A stretch of 64,000 nucleotides of DNA, from positions 983-64,982 of the forward strand of contig JAFSOQ010000055.1 in assembly GCA_017446845.1 (NCBI GenBank), written 5' to 3'. This DNA comes from Selenomonadaceae bacterium. GTDB lineage: Bacteria > Bacillota > Negativicutes > Selenomonadales > Selenomonadaceae. Each line of letters starts with the position of its first letter. Position 1 is the first letter of the stretch. The notes beneath the pieces are model-generated. The model made no database searches and was not told the origin of the DNA. It was given only the letters and a program-made list of their open reading frames with translations. Both the position numbers and the translations under genes were made by a program. Positions 8,566-14,921 of this stretch are shown in pieces.

Positions 8566-9696
8566 GTGGAAAAAATTTTGCAATTCATAGCGAAGGAAAC
8601 GGGCGGCGAAAGTTATCGCACGTCCAGAATGGAACTCGATATTGAAAATTCTTCCGAGCTGATTGAATACGAAGTGCCCGCCGAAATTGTTTCCAAACAC
8701 GCGGGCGAAACTCGTCCGCCGAAAAATTATTTTTCCCTTGAGGAACACGCTAAAAATTTTTCTTCAAGCGGACAGATTTTAAATTACTTTTTGGACGGCT
8801 CGCGGCACGTCTACAAAATTGACGACATTGCTTACAATCACGGTGTGCGCAAAATGATTTATCCGATTGTCGCCGGTCAAGTCGTGGCGGGCTGTTGTCG
8901 ACGCGTCGATAAAAAATTGCACGCGGAAAATTTTTCTGCGGAGATTGTCCTTGCCGTTCCCGACGTGACCAATCCCGACAGCCACAAAGGATTTTTTCCC
9001 GCGCTTGTCAGCAAAATTAATGAGCGTTTCAAAATAAAAATTTCAAAAATTTTGCCATACAAAACGGACAGTAAGCCCGCCGAAAAATTTGAAGACCGCG
9101 CCGTCGCCAAGATTATGGAGCACATGCACAACACCGAAATAAATTTTGTCGCCGAACTCGTCAGGCGCGGCAAGCTCGACCAAAAAAATTATCTCGTCAA
9201 GGACGGTTCGCTTGAGTATAAAGTTTTGACCGAGAGAAAATTTAACCCCAAGAATTACAGCTTTGTTATCGGCGTCTCGAAAAAATTTAATCCGCTGCTC
9301 GTGAAAAATTCCAAAGACAAAAACGATCCCGGACTTGTCGCCGACCTGCCGCTTTTTTATCGCACGCCCGTCACGATTTTTGAACGCGGCAATTTCCACG
9401 AAGGAAATAAATTTGCGGTGTGGTATGTTCGTCTGCGCGATAAAAAATATTCCGATTCGCCCTTTGACGGCGTTGTTAAGGTTGAAAAAATTTTGGTCAC
9501 GGATGCCGAGCGGGATAACGACAAAATCGACAGCGACGATGTAGATCTTTTGAGCGCGTATCTTATCAACGAGCGCAATCCTGTTTGCTACGGCGCGGAC
9601 GGTCGTTGGGCGAATCACATTTATCCGATTTTTCTTACCGAAAGTTTTATCAAGTCGAGATTTATTTCCGCAGAAACATTTTTGAACTTATTTTAA
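8566..9696 (+). CDS. NurA-like (RNase H-fold) nuclease, 376 aa
   Basis: GTG start with AGGAGG 5 nt upstream. NurA-type motif order: FLDGS (D77), MEH (E185), VKDGSL (D213), VIGVSKKF, IYPIFLTE near the C-terminus. It is immediately upstream of a HerA-like ATPase, as in HerA-NurA operons. Confidence 0.6.
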   Translation: MEKILQFIAKETGGESYRTSRMELDIENSSELIEYEVPAEIVSKHAGETRPPKNYFSLEEHAKNFSSSGQILNYFLDGSRHVYKIDDIAYNHGVRKMIYPIVAGQVVAGCCRRVDKKLHAENFSAEIVLAVPDVTNPDSHKGFFPALVSKINERFKIKISKILPYKTDSKPAEKFEDRAVAKIMEHMHNTEINFVAELVRRGKLDQKNYLVKDGSLEYKVLTERKFNPKNYSFVIGVSKKFNPLLVKNSKDKNDPGLVADLPLFYRTPVTIFERGNFHEGNKFAVWYVRLRDKKYSDSPFDGVVKVEKILVTDAERDNDKIDSDDVDLLSAYLINERNPVCYGADGRWANHIYPIFLTESFIKSRFISAETFLNLF

Positions 9697-9885
9697 ATTG
9701 GGCTAGAAATGCGCATGCATTTCGTACGGACGCGGCTACTCGGATAAAAATTTTTAAGCGGTGCGGCGCGTCAGCTGTTTGTCAACTTTTTAAAAGTTGT
9801 GCGCATGCATTTTCGTACGAACGCGGGGACAACGTTAAAAATTTTTAAGCGGTGCGGCGCGTCAGCCGGATGCAACGTCACGTTG
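9697..9885 (+). repeat. Copies (b1, b2) of the dispersed repeat family: two tandem ~90-nt units inserted between the NurA-like and HerA-like genes
   Basis: GCGCATGCATTT(T)CGTACG(G/A)ACGCGG...AAAAATTTTTAAGCGGTGCGGCGCGTCAGC occurs at 9711-9776 and again at 9801-9867 (period 90). The near-palindrome CAACTTTTTAAAAGTTG lies between the units. The element ends in GCAACGTCACGTTGC and is bounded by a duplicated 29-mer (9668-9696 and 9886-9914). Confidence 0.8.
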
Positions 9886-9923
9886 CCGCAGAAACATTTT
9901 TGAATTTATTTTGAGGTGAACAC

Positions 9924-11537
9924 ATGAGCGAGATTATCGGACGCGTCGCGGCTACTGAAAAATTCCCGTCGACCATGGACAAATTTTATTTTTGGACGAA
10001 CGCCGAATTCAGATTGAATGCCTTCGACGTGGTTAAAGTAAAACATTTGGACGAATCATTTTCTTTCGGCACGGTGGAAAATATTTTTCACATAACCGAC
10101 GCGAAAAGTTTTTTGACGAATTACATTTCCTGCGATTTTGGCGACACGAACATAAGCGCGCCGACTTTGCGAATCGGCATGAATTATGTTGAGGTCGCCG
10201 TTTCTTTTAACACAAAAAATATTTATACGCCCGTCAAAAATGATTCGGCGGTTTACCTGGCAAGCGCGGAAGAAATCGAAATGGCGTTGGGGCTCGACAA
10301 GATAAAAAATAAATTGCCCTGCGGCTATCTGAAAATGTACGAAGGTCACGCCGACAAAGAAATTATTTTGCCCGTGAATCTCGACGCACAATTTATTTTA
10401 GGTCCGGAAGGTGCTCACTTAAATATTTCGGGCATATCGGGCTTGGCGGCGAAAACCAGTTACGCGATGTTCCTTATGAAGTCCGTGCAAGAAAATTTTT
10501 CCGATTGCGCGTTCATAATTTTTAACGTTAAGGGCAAAGACTTAATGGCGATTCATCAACCGAACGACGAAGACTCCGCGCCGATTTATAAAAATTTGAA
10601 TTTGAGCGGCGAGCCTTTTGAAAATGTTCATTACTACGCGCCGCGAGACAATAAAAGCGTCACGAGCTACTTGCCGCCCGAAGACGCCGAAAATTATCTT
10701 GCCGAAGGTCTGATGAAAAAATTCGCTTACATTTACGAGGACGACCGCGAGTCTTTGGAAATGCTCTTCGCCGACATTGACGACACGACGCAGACGATGG
10801 ACTCGATTATCAGCAAAATTATCGACCCGAACGATTACGACTTCGGCGGGATTTCTAATTGGGACAGTTTTTTAAATAAGGTCAACGAATTGTCGCAGAA
10901 AGGTAATGCCAAAGAAATTTCCGTTTTGAGTTGGCGCAAGTTCAAACGCATAATCAACAAGGCGATAAAAAATGATGCGATGTTCGTAAATCACACGGCT
11001 CCGAATTTTGAATGCCGCCTCGAAGACGAATTGAAAAATATTTCGGCGGGTTCGGTCAGCGTGATTGACATTGCAAAGCTCGGCAGCGATAAGCAGGCGT
11101 TTGCTTTCGGCGACGTACTCAAGACGATTTACAAACTCAAGCTCGGCGATTACGATATAACTCCGCCGTCGAAGATAATTATCTTCATGGACGAGTTAAA
11201 TAAATTTGCCGGAAAGGATACGACGAAAAATTCTCCGATATTGCGCCAGATTTTGGACGTGGCAGAGCGCGGACGGTCATTGGGAATAATTTTATTCGGC
11301 GCGGAACAATTTCGCTCGAACATTCACCCGCGAGTTACGGGGAATTGTTCAACGCTTGCTTTCGGTCGCACGAACGTTTTAGAGACGACGACCAAAGATT
11401 ATTCTGCATTGCCCTCGACATATAAAAATATTTTGACGCGACTGGAGCAGGGCGAATACGTCATACAAAATCCGATTTTCCGTTCGCTGCTCAAAGTCAA
11501 ATTCCCGAAGCCCGCTTACAAACAGTTCAAAGATTAG
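9924..11537 (+). CDS. HerA-like (FtsK-HerA superfamily, DUF87-type) ATPase with N-terminal HAS-barrel, 537 aa
   Basis: N-terminal GRVAATEKFPSTMDKFYFWTN...FDVVKV looks like a HAS barrel. The P-loop GISGLAAKTS (res 170-179) has Ala in place of the usual Gly before Lys. Walker B is IIIFMDELNKF (D423-E424). The arginine-finger region AERGRSLGIILFGAEQFRS is like HerA EGRK.G..l...SQRPS. Confidence 0.7.
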   Translation: MSEIIGRVAATEKFPSTMDKFYFWTNAEFRLNAFDVVKVKHLDESFSFGTVENIFHITDAKSFLTNYISCDFGDTNISAPTLRIGMNYVEVAVSFNTKNIYTPVKNDSAVYLASAEEIEMALGLDKIKNKLPCGYLKMYEGHADKEIILPVNLDAQFILGPEGAHLNISGISGLAAKTSYAMFLMKSVQENFSDCAFIIFNVKGKDLMAIHQPNDEDSAPIYKNLNLSGEPFENVHYYAPRDNKSVTSYLPPEDAENYLAEGLMKKFAYIYEDDRESLEMLFADIDDTTQTMDSIISKIIDPNDYDFGGISNWDSFLNKVNELSQKGNAKEISVLSWRKFKRIINKAIKNDAMFVNHTAPNFECRLEDELKNISAGSVSVIDIAKLGSDKQAFAFGDVLKTIYKLKLGDYDITPPSKIIIFMDELNKFAGKDTTKNSPILRQILDVAERGRSLGIILFGAEQFRSNIHPRVTGNCSTLAFGRTNVLETTTKDYSALPSTYKNILTRLEQGEYVIQNPIFRSLLKVKFPKPAYKQFKD

Positions 11538-11548
11538 GAGGAAAAATT

Positions 11549-12988
11549 ATGGCAAATTATGTTTTCGGCGCAAATCTAATTGAAAATCTCACAACGGGCA
11601 TGTATCAAAATCCTCTTGTGATTTTTCGCGAGTATATTCAAAATTCTTGCGACGCGATAGACAAAGCCCGCGCAGATGAAATTTTGGCGGCTGACGAAGG
11701 CTCGATAGAAATTACAATCGATAAGGACGCCCGCCGAATCACAATCGAAGACAATGGCACGGGAATTCCTGTTTTAGATTTCAAGCCGACTTTAACAAGT
11801 ATTGCCGCTTCCGATAAAAATTTGGAGAGTAACAGAGGTTTTCGCGGTATCGGACGACTTTGCGGCGTGGCTTATTGCAAAGAATTGCGTTTTACTTCGA
11901 CGGCCAAAGATGAAGTCGTTCAATCGACGATGATAATCAACGCCGAGAACATGTGCAAAAAATTTTACGGCAAAGAAAAAATCAAAGCGGAAGATTTGCT
12001 TGACGAATCCATAAATTTTCCGAAAGTTTCCGTCGCCGACCCTGACGAGCATTTTTTTCGCGTTGAGCTGATTGATATTGTCGACACCAACAACGATTTG
12101 CTCGACAAGGAAAAAGTTCGCGAGTATTTATCATTCGTCGCGCCCGTCGATTACAAAAACAGTTTAGGTTTTAAAGGTCTTCAAAATAAAATCTTAGAGC
12201 ACGCTGCTAAGCTTAATTTTAAGATTGCCGGTTATAAAATTCTTGTTGACGGCGAGCATCTTTACAAGCCTTACAAGTCGAATTTCAAGACTACTCACAA
12301 TGGAGCCGATGAAATTTTTGATATAGATTTTCGCGACTTCTACGATGACGAAAAAAATTTAATTGCGTGGAGTTGGATTGGCTTATCGAAATTTAAAGGC
12401 GTCATTGACCAAACGAGCGGCACGCCCGATAATTTGATGCGCGGCATTCGACTTCGCGCGGGCAATATTCAAATCGGCGACCAAGAGGCACTTAAGCATT
12501 TATTCAGCGAGGCACGCGGCACGAATTATTTTATCGGCGAAGTTCATGCTGTTGACAAAAATTTGATTCCGAACGGTCGACGAGATTATTTTGTCGAAAA
12601 TAAAGCTTGTAACACTTTTGAAGGCGAGCTGAGAAAATATTTCGATGAACTCTACAAAATTTATCACGCGGCGTCGGACATCAGAGGCTTTCAAAAAAGG
12701 ATTAGTGCTCCCGCTGAAGCTGTGCAAGACTTTCAACAAGGACGCTCCATATTTAAAAATCAAGCTGAACTCAATAGCGAACTTGCCAAGCTGAATAAAA
12801 TTGCAACGACTGCCGAAAATAAAATTGAGTCTGTTCGTAAAGAGGCAGAGCAAAATCCTGATTCAGCTTTGTCGCGTGTCGTACTGCGCATGACAGAAAA
12901 TAAAATACCCCCCCCGGTCAACATGATTCGGAACAAGAGGAAACAAAAACAAAACAATTTCCGCCCGTTCATTGGCGCAAAGATTTAA
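11549..12988 (+). CDS. GHKL/Bergerat-fold ATPase (HATPase_c_3 / MORC-Hsp90-like) with a coiled-coil C-terminal region; the annotated stop probably follows a frameshift
   Basis: The N box is REYIQNSCDAIDKA (E28, N32, D35). The G1 box is IEDNGTGI (D68). The G2 box is RGFRGIGRL. The start is 11 nt after the HerA-like stop, with GAGGAA as SD. A C8 run at 12908-12915 precedes an alternative frame that stays open to 13086. Confidence 0.7.
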   Translation: MANYVFGANLIENLTTGMYQNPLVIFREYIQNSCDAIDKARADEILAADEGSIEITIDKDARRITIEDNGTGIPVLDFKPTLTSIAASDKNLESNRGFRGIGRLCGVAYCKELRFTSTAKDEVVQSTMIINAENMCKKFYGKEKIKAEDLLDESINFPKVSVADPDEHFFRVELIDIVDTNNDLLDKEKVREYLSFVAPVDYKNSLGFKGLQNKILEHAAKLNFKIAGYKILVDGEHLYKPYKSNFKTTHNGADEIFDIDFRDFYDDEKNLIAWSWIGLSKFKGVIDQTSGTPDNLMRGIRLRAGNIQIGDQEALKHLFSEARGTNYFIGEVHAVDKNLIPNGRRDYFVENKACNTFEGELRKYFDELYKIYHAASDIRGFQKRISAPAEAVQDFQQGRSIFKNQAELNSELAKLNKIATTAENKIESVRKEAEQNPDSALSRVVLRMTENKIPPPVNMIRNKRKQKQNNFRPFIGAKI

Positions 12989-13082
12989 AAAGGCTTTACA
13001 CTGAAATTAAAAAGGTCATTCTCAAAAATCCTAAAATTTCGGGCGATAAGCTCCTTGACAAGATTGAAGAGGTGCTCGCCAA

Positions 13083-14921
13083 ATGAGCCGCCGCGTTTTG
13101 TTGTTGGAGCCGAATTGGAAGAACAAATATCCGCCCGCAAATTTAATGAAGTTGGCGACGTATTTTCGGAGCGTGTGCAAAGATGACGTGCGCTTTTACA
13201 AGGGCGACTTAAAAAATTTTGCCGCACAACTTTTGCTTGAAGAATTTTTTTCGGGCGAAGTCGACAAGGAAAATCTTTTTGCGCCCGAACAAAATGACGC
13301 CGCGCAGAAATTTTGGCGGCAAGAAAAATTTTTGTTGGAGTTTATAAAGACGGGGAAAAATTCTTTACTCGAATTCATGCGCGAGGAAGATTTTTTTTAC
13401 GAGTACAGCTTGAAAAAACTTCATCGCCGATTCAAAGCCGAAAACTTCCCGACGTTCGATATAATCTGTGTCAATTCGCTGTTCACGTTCTTTTTTGATG
13501 AGACAGTCAGCGCGATAAATTTTGCCAAGAAATTTCTGGCGGAAGACGGGAAAATTTTTGTCGGAGGAGTGGCGGCGACTCTCGTGCCGAAATTTTTTGA
13601 GGACGCGACCGGAATCAAACCGCATGAAGGACTTTTGGATAAGCCCGACGACCTCGGCAAAAACGACGACGTGATTATCGACACCCTGCCGCAAGATTAT
13701 TCAATCCTCGACGAAATCGACTACAAATATCCCGCCGCCGACGCTTACATAACTTACACGACGCGCGGTTGTATTCGCAAATGTTCTTTTTGCGCGGTCA
13801 GCAAGCTTGAACCCGAATATAAAGACCACGTGGAAATTTTTAATCAGCTCAAGCACACCGAAGAAAATTTCGGCGCGAAAAGAAATCTTCTGCTCATGGA
13901 TAACAACGTCCTTGCCTCGAAAAAATTTGATGAGATTATCGACGAGATTAAAGCTTGCGGTTTCGCGAAGGGCGCGAATTATCTGCCGCCCGACGAATAT
14001 TCTATCGCTCTGGAAAATCTCCGAGCCGGTTTCAACGACCGCGCTTATCTGAAAAAAATAATTTATCTCTATGACGAACTCGAAAAGAAGTTGCCCGAAA
14101 ATTTGGCGGGCGAATTTTATTCCGCGCGCGAGAAAAATTTTTTGCTCAGCTTGATAACCGCGTCTAAAGAAAAAATTTTCGCGCTTGATGATTTTGTCCG
14201 CCCGCTGTTTGAAAAATATTTCAAGCGCAAAAGTCTCGTCCGCTACGTCGATTTTAATCAGGGGCTTGACGCGCGGCTTGTCGACGATCACAAAATGGCG
14301 CGGCTTGCCGAATTGAATATCCGACCCATGCGCATTGCCTTCGACCACATTGAACAGCGCGACATTTATGAACGGGCAATTCGACTGGCGGCAAAGTACG
14401 GCATTCGTGACTTGTCGAATTATCTGCTGTATAATTTTTTGGACACGCCCGCCGATTTTTATAACCGCTTGAAAATAAATATCGACCTTTGCGAGGATTT
14501 GGACGTTGCGATTTATTCTTTCCCGATGAAATATTGTCCGATTGACGCCCCGCAATATTTCAGCAACCGCGATTATATCGGGCGGCATTGGAATAAAAAA
14601 TTTATTCGGGCGATTCAGGCGATAATAAATTCCACCAAGGGTAAAGTCGGGCGCGGACGTGAATTTTTTGAAAAGGCATTCGGGAAAAATCTCGACGAGT
14701 TCAGGGAATTGCTTTACATGCCCGAACCTTTTATAATTTACAGGTTAAGATACGAGGACAATTTGACGGAGTCTTGGCGCGAAAAATTTTCAGCCCTCAA
14801 TGACGACGAACGAACCTTGGCAGAAAAAATTATCGAACAGAATAAATTTTCCGATAAAGATATTGGCGACGCGCCGAAAAAAATTCGGGAGCTTTTGGAA
14901 TTCTACAGGATACGGCGTTAA
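13083..14921 (+). CDS. Radical SAM enzyme with an N-terminal B12-binding-like domain (class-B-like architecture), 612 aa
   Basis: The CxxxCxxC cluster is TTRGCIRKCSFCAV (C230, C234, C237; nt 13770-13793). The N-terminal RRVLLLEPNWKNKYPPANLMKLATYF resembles the B12-domain start of class B rSAMs. The C-terminal ~250 aa are uncharacterised. Confidence 0.75.
   Translation: MSRRVLLLEPNWKNKYPPANLMKLATYFRSVCKDDVRFYKGDLKNFAAQLLLEEFFSGEVDKENLFAPEQNDAAQKFWRQEKFLLEFIKTGKNSLLEFMREEDFFYEYSLKKLHRRFKAENFPTFDIICVNSLFTFFFDETVSAINFAKKFLAEDGKIFVGGVAATLVPKFFEDATGIKPHEGLLDKPDDLGKNDDVIIDTLPQDYSILDEIDYKYPAADAYITYTTRGCIRKCSFCAVSKLEPEYKDHVEIFNQLKHTEENFGAKRNLLLMDNNVLASKKFDEIIDEIKACGFAKGANYLPPDEYSIALENLRAGFNDRAYLKKIIYLYDELEKKLPENLAGEFYSAREKNFLLSLITASKEKIFALDDFVRPLFEKYFKRKSLVRYVDFNQGLDARLVDDHKMARLAELNIRPMRIAFDHIEQRDIYERAIRLAAKYGIRDLSNYLLYNFLDTPADFYNRLKINIDLCEDLDVAIYSFPMKYCPIDAPQYFSNRDYIGRHWNKKFIRAIQAIINSTKGKVGRGREFFEKAFGKNLDEFRELLYMPEPFIIYRLRYEDNLTESWREKFSALNDDERTLAEKIIEQNKFSDKDIGDAPKKIRELLEFYRIRR

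Follow-up and report, generated by a model that had tools for sequence, protein, structure and literature searches.

A poly-C tract and putative C-terminal phase variation of an Hsp90-like ATPase gene in a HerA cassette of rumen Selenomonadaceae

We analysed a 64,000-nt stretch of DNA from a Selenomonadaceae bacterium (hereafter the window; contig JAFSOQ010000055.1, positions 983 to 64,982, of assembly GCA_017446845.1), in which a gene for an Hsp90-like ATPase of the GHKL (GHL) type is followed by a radical S-adenosylmethionine (rSAM) gene. Near its 3′ end the GHKL gene contains a run of eight C (C8). Our analysis indicates, with a probability of about 85%, that this run is a genuine contingency locus of the C-terminal type, at which slipped-strand phase variation switches the C-terminus of the GHKL protein together with its coupling to the rSAM gene. 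Such an ON/OFF switch had been proposed in an earlier note made from the letters alone, and it is now supported by a C9 allele, a series of C10–C13 alleles, the clade-wide position of the tract and the frame statistics.

The C8 tract and the ancestral C-terminus

The sequence contains exactly eight C at the tract. In the open reading frame (ORF) at 11549-12988 the tract is translated as PPP, and the product's C-terminal end is VNMIRNKRKQKQNNFRPFIGAKI, followed by a stop. The stop codon of this 479-aa frame ends at 12988 and the rSAM ATG lies at 13083, leaving a gap of 94 nt. Across the tract, the neighbouring frame reads ...TPPGQHDSEQEETKTKQFPPVHWRKDLKRLYTEIKKVILKNPKISGDKLLDKIEEVLAK and ends with the TGA at 13084-13086 within AAATGA. 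From the tract onward its peptide is GQHDSEQEETKTKQFPPVHWRKDLKRLYTEIKKVILKNPKISGDKLLDKIEEVLAK, and a TAA shuts this frame just 5′ of the tract. By frame arithmetic, the two frames are joined by the gain of one C (C9) or the loss of two (C6). Translation thus agreed with the earlier note on the C8 run, on the basic tail that soon ends the annotated frame, and on a neighbouring frame that is entered with 9 C or 6 C and stays open to the rSAM start. The tract makes up codons 454–456 of the 512-codon gene, 89% along the full-length coding sequence, and the shifted-frame segment encodes the rest of a linker and two helices. At this base composition, an open frame of 56 codons has a chance of P ~0.05. 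The coordinates of all features are given in Table 1.

Table 1. Features around the C8 tract of the window, and the other long C/G tracts of the source genome (G000; contig:position).
Feature	Position	Strand	Basis or remark
Fused major facilitator superfamily (MFS)/spermidine synthase gene, 529 aa	6894-8483		NCBIfam NF037959, E 4e-59; unrelated to the cassette
Conserved 376-aa protein, first cassette gene	8566-9696	+	Synteny; NurA-like by position and motifs only
HerA-type ATPase, 537 aa, second cassette gene	9924-11537	+	Synteny and profile match
Hsp90-like GHKL (GHL) ATPase gene, OFF reading, 479 aa (P0001)	11549-12988	+	Ends in a 23-residue out-of-frame basic tail
Poly-C tract (C8), putative hypermutable switch	12908-12915	+	Read from sequence; codes for the Pro run of a disordered linker
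Shifted-frame segment, putative ancestral C-terminus, 56 residues and TGA	12916-13086	+	Read only with C9, C6 or C12
GAGG, Shine-Dalgarno-like, 10 nt upstream of the rSAM ATG	13069-13072	+	Read from sequence
ATGA overlap of full-length GHKL stop and rSAM start codon	13083-13086	+	Sequence, translation and 133-locus comparison
rSAM gene, 612 aa, last cassette gene	13083-14921	+	CxxxCxxC at C230/C234/C237
G11 tract	C35:78445
C9 tract	C42:30946
G9 tract	C52:9500
C8 tract	C70:12422
G8 tract	C85:4120
C9 tract	C91:39543
G8 tract	C110:1358
C9 tract	C130:1500

Both alternative C-termini were compared with homologues, as the earlier note had proposed. Homologues of the 479-aa product (P0001) number in the thousands, most of them 505–523 aa long, and they cover only about 94–95% of it, that is, all but the basic tail. 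The shifted-frame peptide aligned to the exact C-termini of more than 30 homologues (E 1e-19 to 1e-6), and the shifted-frame segment matched a hidden Markov model (HMM) of the tail with E 1e-21. The short basic tail was rejected as a real conserved C-terminus, its sole good match (P0016) being another out-of-frame reading of the same conserved DNA. The junction between the GHKL and rSAM genes is ATGA in 109 of 133 related loci, and 19 more have an overlap of the TAATG type. From the tail matches and the conservation of this junction, we take the long frame ending in ATGA to be the ancestral, selected arrangement.

Alleles and distribution of the tract

The 90%-identity cluster of P0001 has only one other member, P0122 (512 aa, from the Logan assembly of SRR30684057). 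It is the exact predicted C9 product, ...KIPPPGQHDSEQ...LAK, with exactly the shifted-frame tail. Aligned with the window over 6231 nt, its locus (L083) shows 99.1% identity; there are 55 mismatches, and the only gap is at the tract, C9 versus C8. A scan of JGI metagenomes found no relative closer than 63% identity; it brought in more species, but for the window's own species no alleles beyond these.

A longer series was found in a sister species (genome record JAFPVP01, locus L005/L173), where we compared the underlying DNA of four proteins from a single 90% cluster. Two alleles are in frame, C10 (from 2 samples) and C13, and two are not, C11 (on 9 contigs) in one wrong frame and C12 (on 5 contigs) in the other; the flanks are identical throughout. 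Three C11 loci (L170-L172) differ from a C10 locus (L168) by 1–5 mismatches and one gap, while the C13 locus L176 has no mismatch to the C12 locus L173 in 2739 nt and a single gap of one C. Members in more than one frame state (two or three) were also found in eight of ten further 90%-identity clusters that were examined, and some in-frame variants lie one Pro apart. Three proteins of one cluster (P0006, P0127 and P0129) end in GGGG(GG) exactly where others have PPP, which means that the called strand has poly-G there, perhaps through an artefact of sequencing or of a contig end at a long tract.

The earlier note had left a homopolymer sequencing error as an alternative, in which the true sequence would be C9, the gene full length and the frameshift a miscall. 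The existence of the C9 version agrees with this, and so does the nature of the source genome, a metagenome-assembled genome (MAG; 2.19 Mb, 45.8% G+C) that is 73.6% complete in 142 contigs and, like other such assemblies, prone to errors in homopolymers. But the 479-aa C8 product is on record, residue for residue, on 5 contigs of three length classes and several sources, which makes a simple miscall in the window unlikely. In the sister species, C11 and C12 each recur across independent samples and assemblers, and consensus calls that span C10–C13 are unlike Illumina consensus error. Moreover, both wrong frames occur, as do in-frame variants three bases longer, and the out-of-frame fraction is the two thirds expected at random rather than a small minority. 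We therefore consider an error very improbable.

The distribution of the tract was then followed in loci from species-representative genomes (80) and from metagenomes (75). In 778 kb of cassette DNA, all C/G runs of at least 8 but one sit 135–181 nt upstream of the rSAM start, always as coding-strand poly-C, and the tract occupies the same linker position in 17 related loci. The exception, L045:7731 (Selenomonadaceae RGIG4823), is a G9 within the rSAM gene, 189 nt from its start. This locus lacks a tract in its GHKL linker, and the G9 may be a further site of phase variation in the cassette, independent of the first. In a tree built on the N-terminal 450 residues of GHKL, all 17 tract-bearing rows fall within one clade of 29 Selenomonadales rows (100% branch support). 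The tract was found in none of the 40 tree rows from other taxa (Lachnospiraceae, Oscillospiraceae, Desulfitobacteriaceae, Bacteroidota, Chlorobiota, Chloroflexota, Planctomycetota, Elusimicrobiota and Synergistota).

The frame state also followed the tract. Where the longest C/G run in the linker is at least 8, 11 loci are out of frame (OFF) and 6 in frame (ON); where it is shorter than 5, only 1 is OFF and 56 are ON (Fisher p = 3e-8). The OFF loci use both wrong frames, and their share, 11/17, is the expectation for random length modulo 3 (2/3). The tail frame is open in most OFF loci and scores E 1e-14 to 1e-23 against the tail HMM. Since the chance of this without selection is ~3e-12, the tail is still under selection.

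These results bear on a further alternative, namely that the frameshift has irreversibly inactivated GHKL, in a lineage where the cassette is now in decay. Indeed, neither the window nor most tract-bearing relatives have the gene in frame, and it is diverging much faster than its neighbours. Two loci with shortened or interrupted tracts, L013 (C4AC6) and L027 (CAC5), are out of frame; they look like decayed tracts and may be locked-OFF remnants. At L006 (1605-1700) the linker is frameshifted without any tract, reading RIIEKRDV... against RIIEKRDDDSKNPQ... in the close homologue P0060, which is either a true pseudogene or an assembly error. However, the window's 56-codon tail is undamaged and does not differ from that of the in-frame C9 strain, the NurA-like, HerA and rSAM genes are intact, and the tract is the sole lesion. 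Open and conserved tail frames in OFF loci argue against decay as well, as do in-frame alleles that coexist in the same species, some of them three bases longer. Decay thus appears quite improbable.

It might also be supposed that the DNA length is fixed and that recoding of the RNA at the tract, whether by programmed -1 frameshifting of the ribosome or by slippage during transcription, yields the full-length protein from C8 alongside the short one. Formally, C CCC CCC is slippery for tRNA-Pro, and with C8 a shift by -1 would lead precisely into the conserved frame; some low-level slippage on the run may take place. The documented cases of transcriptional slippage mostly concern A/T runs of at least 9. 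The relation between the frames is not fixed in relatives, where the tail lies in frame 0, +1 or +2, and the DNA length itself varies between identical strains. We found no stimulatory structure of the kind expected 5–9 nt downstream of a slippery site (minimum free energy -9.8 kcal/mol, z = +1.15; 176 of 200 shuffled sequences were no less stable), and a search of Rfam gave no match for a known RNA element at the tract. On the variable frame relation and these two negatives, programmed frameshifting or a known RNA element was rejected, and recoding of either kind is extremely improbable as a substitute for phase variation.

The rest of the genome was searched for similar runs. C/G runs of length 6 number 30 against 374 expected from independent bases, and those of length 7 number 4 against 86. 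Runs of 6–7 are thus 12- to 20-fold rarer than expected, but nine runs reach a length of 8–11, and the distribution is bimodal. Several of the long tracts lie in restriction, methyltransferase and surface-modification genes. Besides the GHKL gene, their hosts include an ORF with DNA_methylase and RE_HpaII domains (M.HpaII/R.HpaII-like, G11 at the 3′ end), methyltransferases of the FkbM-like and MTS kinds, another methyltransferase that is cut off from its MethyTransf_Reg domain exactly at C9, an Acyl_transf_3/PGA_cap/GDSL protein and a CitC-like protein. The nine tracts form a candidate phasome, the signature that a set of phase-variable contingency loci would leave.

Taken together, the locus shows four features of a homopolymeric-tract contingency locus. 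C8 lies within the range of such tracts (mononucleotide runs of about 7–8 or more in or just upstream of a coding sequence). Near-identical sequences differ in its length (C8/C9; C10–C13). Species-level clusters shift between in-frame and out-of-frame states, with all three states present. Against the background, nine long runs stand out in the genome, and the position is kept in 17 loci. The features of C-terminal phase variation are found as well, with the tract in the last fifth of the coding sequence and only the C-terminus altered; the OFF forms (479 and ~459 aa) retain the ATPase, middle and helical regions.

The proposed switch and the cassette

The GHKL protein matches Pfam HATPase_c_3 above the cut-off (E 1.4e-11), and its profile matches the N-domains of HtpG, TRAP1 and GRP94 (E 1e-10). 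Residues E28, N32, D68 and G72 are invariant, and so is the GFRGIGRL motif (G97-L104) apart from F98, I101 and L104, which are nearly so. The protein therefore has the Bergerat-fold ATP-binding domain and N-terminal motifs of a GHL ATPase, but it does not reach the NCBIfam cut-off for HtpG (42.9 bits against 371). The AlphaFold2 monomer model of the ON protein (predicted local distance difference test, pLDDT, 83.7; predicted TM score, pTM, 0.76) has a Bergerat ATPase domain, a beta-rich middle domain, long helices at 352–449, a disordered linker at 452–468 (pLDDT ~40) that holds the Pro run, and terminal helices at 478–493 and 499–511. In Foldseek the N-terminal and middle domains are nearest to Hsp90, TRAP1 and GRP94 (E ~1e-15, TM ~0.47). 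Lying in the disordered linker, the tract would tolerate in-frame changes of three bases, and such changes are observed.

The GHKL protein is 48–65% identical between Selenomonadales relatives, against 72–94% for the flanking HerA and rSAM proteins (window 11549-12915 compared with L002, L004, L005, L013, L015, L016, L019, L038 and L044). In comparison with L002 the identity is mosaic, being 88–90% at residues 200–350 and ~52% at residues 1–150. This fast, mosaic divergence suggests diversifying selection, recombination or relaxed constraint.

In the mechanism that we propose, C residues would be gained or lost by slipped-strand mispairing at replication, in the linker between the long helices and the C-terminal two-helix module. 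In the window's species, C9 (and also C6 or C12) gives the full 512-aa protein, with its stop overlapping the rSAM start as ATGA. With C8 or C11 the product is the 479-aa form, whose stop falls 94 nt before the rSAM gene; this OFF state (OFF-a) is the one seen in the window. C7 or C10 would give a form of ~459 aa ending in PPRST, with translation stopping ~160 nt before the rSAM ATG.

The OFF states would have two consequences. First, the conserved C-terminal helical hairpin would be lost. The constitutive dimer interface of Hsp90 is built from its last helices, and the two-helix tail of the GHKL protein is compatible with dimerisation in the monomer model. By analogy, the hairpin is probably needed for dimerisation or partner binding, and OFF alleles would lose dimerisation or docking. 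Second, the ATGA coupling would be broken, so that rSAM translation would be uncoupled from that of GHKL. The GAGG upstream of the rSAM ATG may permit some initiation independent of coupling. In some relatives the OFF frame instead overruns the rSAM start by 50–130 codons. The net effect would be that, within a population, a NurA-like/HerA/GHL/rSAM cassette is turned ON and OFF (or attenuated) at random, in a way that is both heritable and reversible.

This cassette has four genes, for the 376-aa protein, the HerA ATPase, GHKL and rSAM, whose order and orientation are kept in nearly all loci. Wherever a locus extends far enough, the rSAM gene lies directly downstream of GHKL. The cassette occurs in many phyla, and several Selenomonadaceae have it at the same place, upstream of rbfA-nrnA-truB. 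The 376-aa protein has invariant DG(S) motifs (alignment A3) and gave no match in Pfam, in NCBIfam or, by profile search, among PDB sequences. A profile of 21 orthologues of the HerA-type ATPase matched PDB 7f6d_B (HerA) with E 1.1e-48, and its GISGLAAKTS and DELNK motifs are invariant, which places it in the HerA clade. The rSAM protein matched Pfam Radical_SAM with E 2.9e-6, just under the curated cut-off, and no PDB match was obtained by sequence-profile search. Between the 376-aa gene and herA there is a gap of 227 nt in the window (9697-9923), compared with ~13 nt in relatives. It contains a direct repeat of 67 nt (BLAST; 88% identity, 9710-9775 and 9800-9866), which is probably a small inserted repeat element.

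While the switch itself was strongly supported, the defence or restriction-modification (R-M) setting given to the locus in the earlier note stands only as an inference, because the 529-aa gene upstream lies outside the cassette. This gene was considered as a methyltransferase that would make the locus R-M-like, and was rejected as such, being a fused MFS/spermidine synthase. Its PADLOC match to mad2 (E 5.7e-18) covers only the generic methyltransferase fold, and calls for caution with matches to that fold in defence libraries.

Several observations weigh against the proposed switch or limit it. All sequences come from metagenome assemblies, in which homopolymers are the most error-prone sites, and samples of the same project may share strains. 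Heterogeneity within populations and reversibility are read from differences between assemblies, and the roles of the tail and of the whole cassette are putative. PADLOC-DB 2.0 does not recognise the cassette: GHKL had no match, and the HerA-like and rSAM proteins gave no significant one (mad8, E 7.5e-4, and PDC-M51A, E 2.8e-3, respectively). In the species cluster of P0014 there are OFF forms only, which could also mean that the gene is drifting toward loss there. Finally, MutS and MutL are present, and switching rates may be below those of Campylobacter-like species without mismatch repair. Neisseria and Haemophilus also have MutS/MutL, and homopolymeric tracts still switch in them.

A wider interpretation, to which we give slightly less than even odds, is that selection maintains a three-state switch across the rumen Selenomonadales clade. 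It would gate an undescribed but widespread NurA-like/HerA/Hsp90-like/rSAM conflict system through hairpin loss and rSAM uncoupling. Together with the eight other tracts it would form a Campylobacter-style phasome in a commensal Negativicute, and the GHL ATPase would be a fast-evolving, costly control subunit.

Conservation of such an ON/OFF switch would argue for a cassette that is conditionally costly, as is typical of DNA-targeting defence systems. The alleles provide a natural ON/OFF pair for probing its function. They also matter for annotation: about two thirds of GHKL gene calls in this clade are truncated or run out of frame into rSAM, and such calls would be phase-OFF alleles rather than distinct proteins or pseudogenes.

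Comparison with known systems

Our literature search found no report of phase variation in Selenomonas or rumen Selenomonadales, and no description of a HerA/NurA/GHKL/rSAM cassette. The mechanism, classical slipped-strand mispairing, is already known. What is new is its target, a GHL ATPase in an undescribed HerA cassette, as well as the clade and the breadth of tract conservation. Phase variation is documented mostly in host-adapted pathogens, whereas here a hypermutable tract is kept across many species of a rumen commensal family.

C-terminal phase variation by 3′-proximal homopolymeric tracts was proposed in Helicobacter canadensis (Snyder et al. 2010, PMC2823697). As in that type, the poly-G/C tract of the GHKL gene lies in the last fifth of the coding sequence, a change in its length replaces or shortens the C-terminus while translation is kept, and it is one of only a few long G/C tracts that its genome contains. 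It differs in that a conserved module of 56 residues is switched rather than a few residues, and in that the stop is coupled to the next gene. Furthermore, H. canadensis is an epsilonproteobacterial pathogen, whereas the host here is a rumen Negativicute, and the evidence consists of metagenome alleles rather than read pile-ups.

Poly-G/C tracts are found in mod, hsdS, res and pglX of phase-variable R-M and Pgl/BREX systems, with examples in Neisseria and Campylobacter. The proposed switch would resemble them as a stochastic ON/OFF control, by slipped-strand mispairing, of a DNA-targeting and probably costly system with a putative defence role. The G11 tract in the M.HpaII/R.HpaII-like ORF of this genome is a further likeness. 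It departs from those systems in that the product of the switched gene is a GHL ATPase of the Hsp90-like type, and in that the cassette lacks both a methyltransferase and a PADLOC match.

The GHKL protein is similar to Hsp90/HtpG in its Bergerat N-domain by sequence and in its N-terminal and middle fold by Foldseek, and its helical C-terminal end could dimerise. However, the identity is only 12–17%. At 512 aa the protein is also shorter, has a long helical segment resembling a coiled coil and ends in a minimal two-helix tail in place of the Hsp90 C-terminal domain, and its gene always lies between those for HerA and rSAM.

With the NurA-HerA end-resection complex of Deinococcus radiodurans (PDB 7f6d), the cassette shares a clear HerA homologue preceded by a candidate nuclease partner. 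The 537-aa protein also has weaker matches to the HerA of defence complexes, in line with HerA-based defence such as Sir2-HerA and HerA-DUF4297. Unlike NurA-HerA, its candidate partner has no detectable sequence similarity to solved NurA, and the cassette adds a GHL ATPase and an rSAM protein to the pair.

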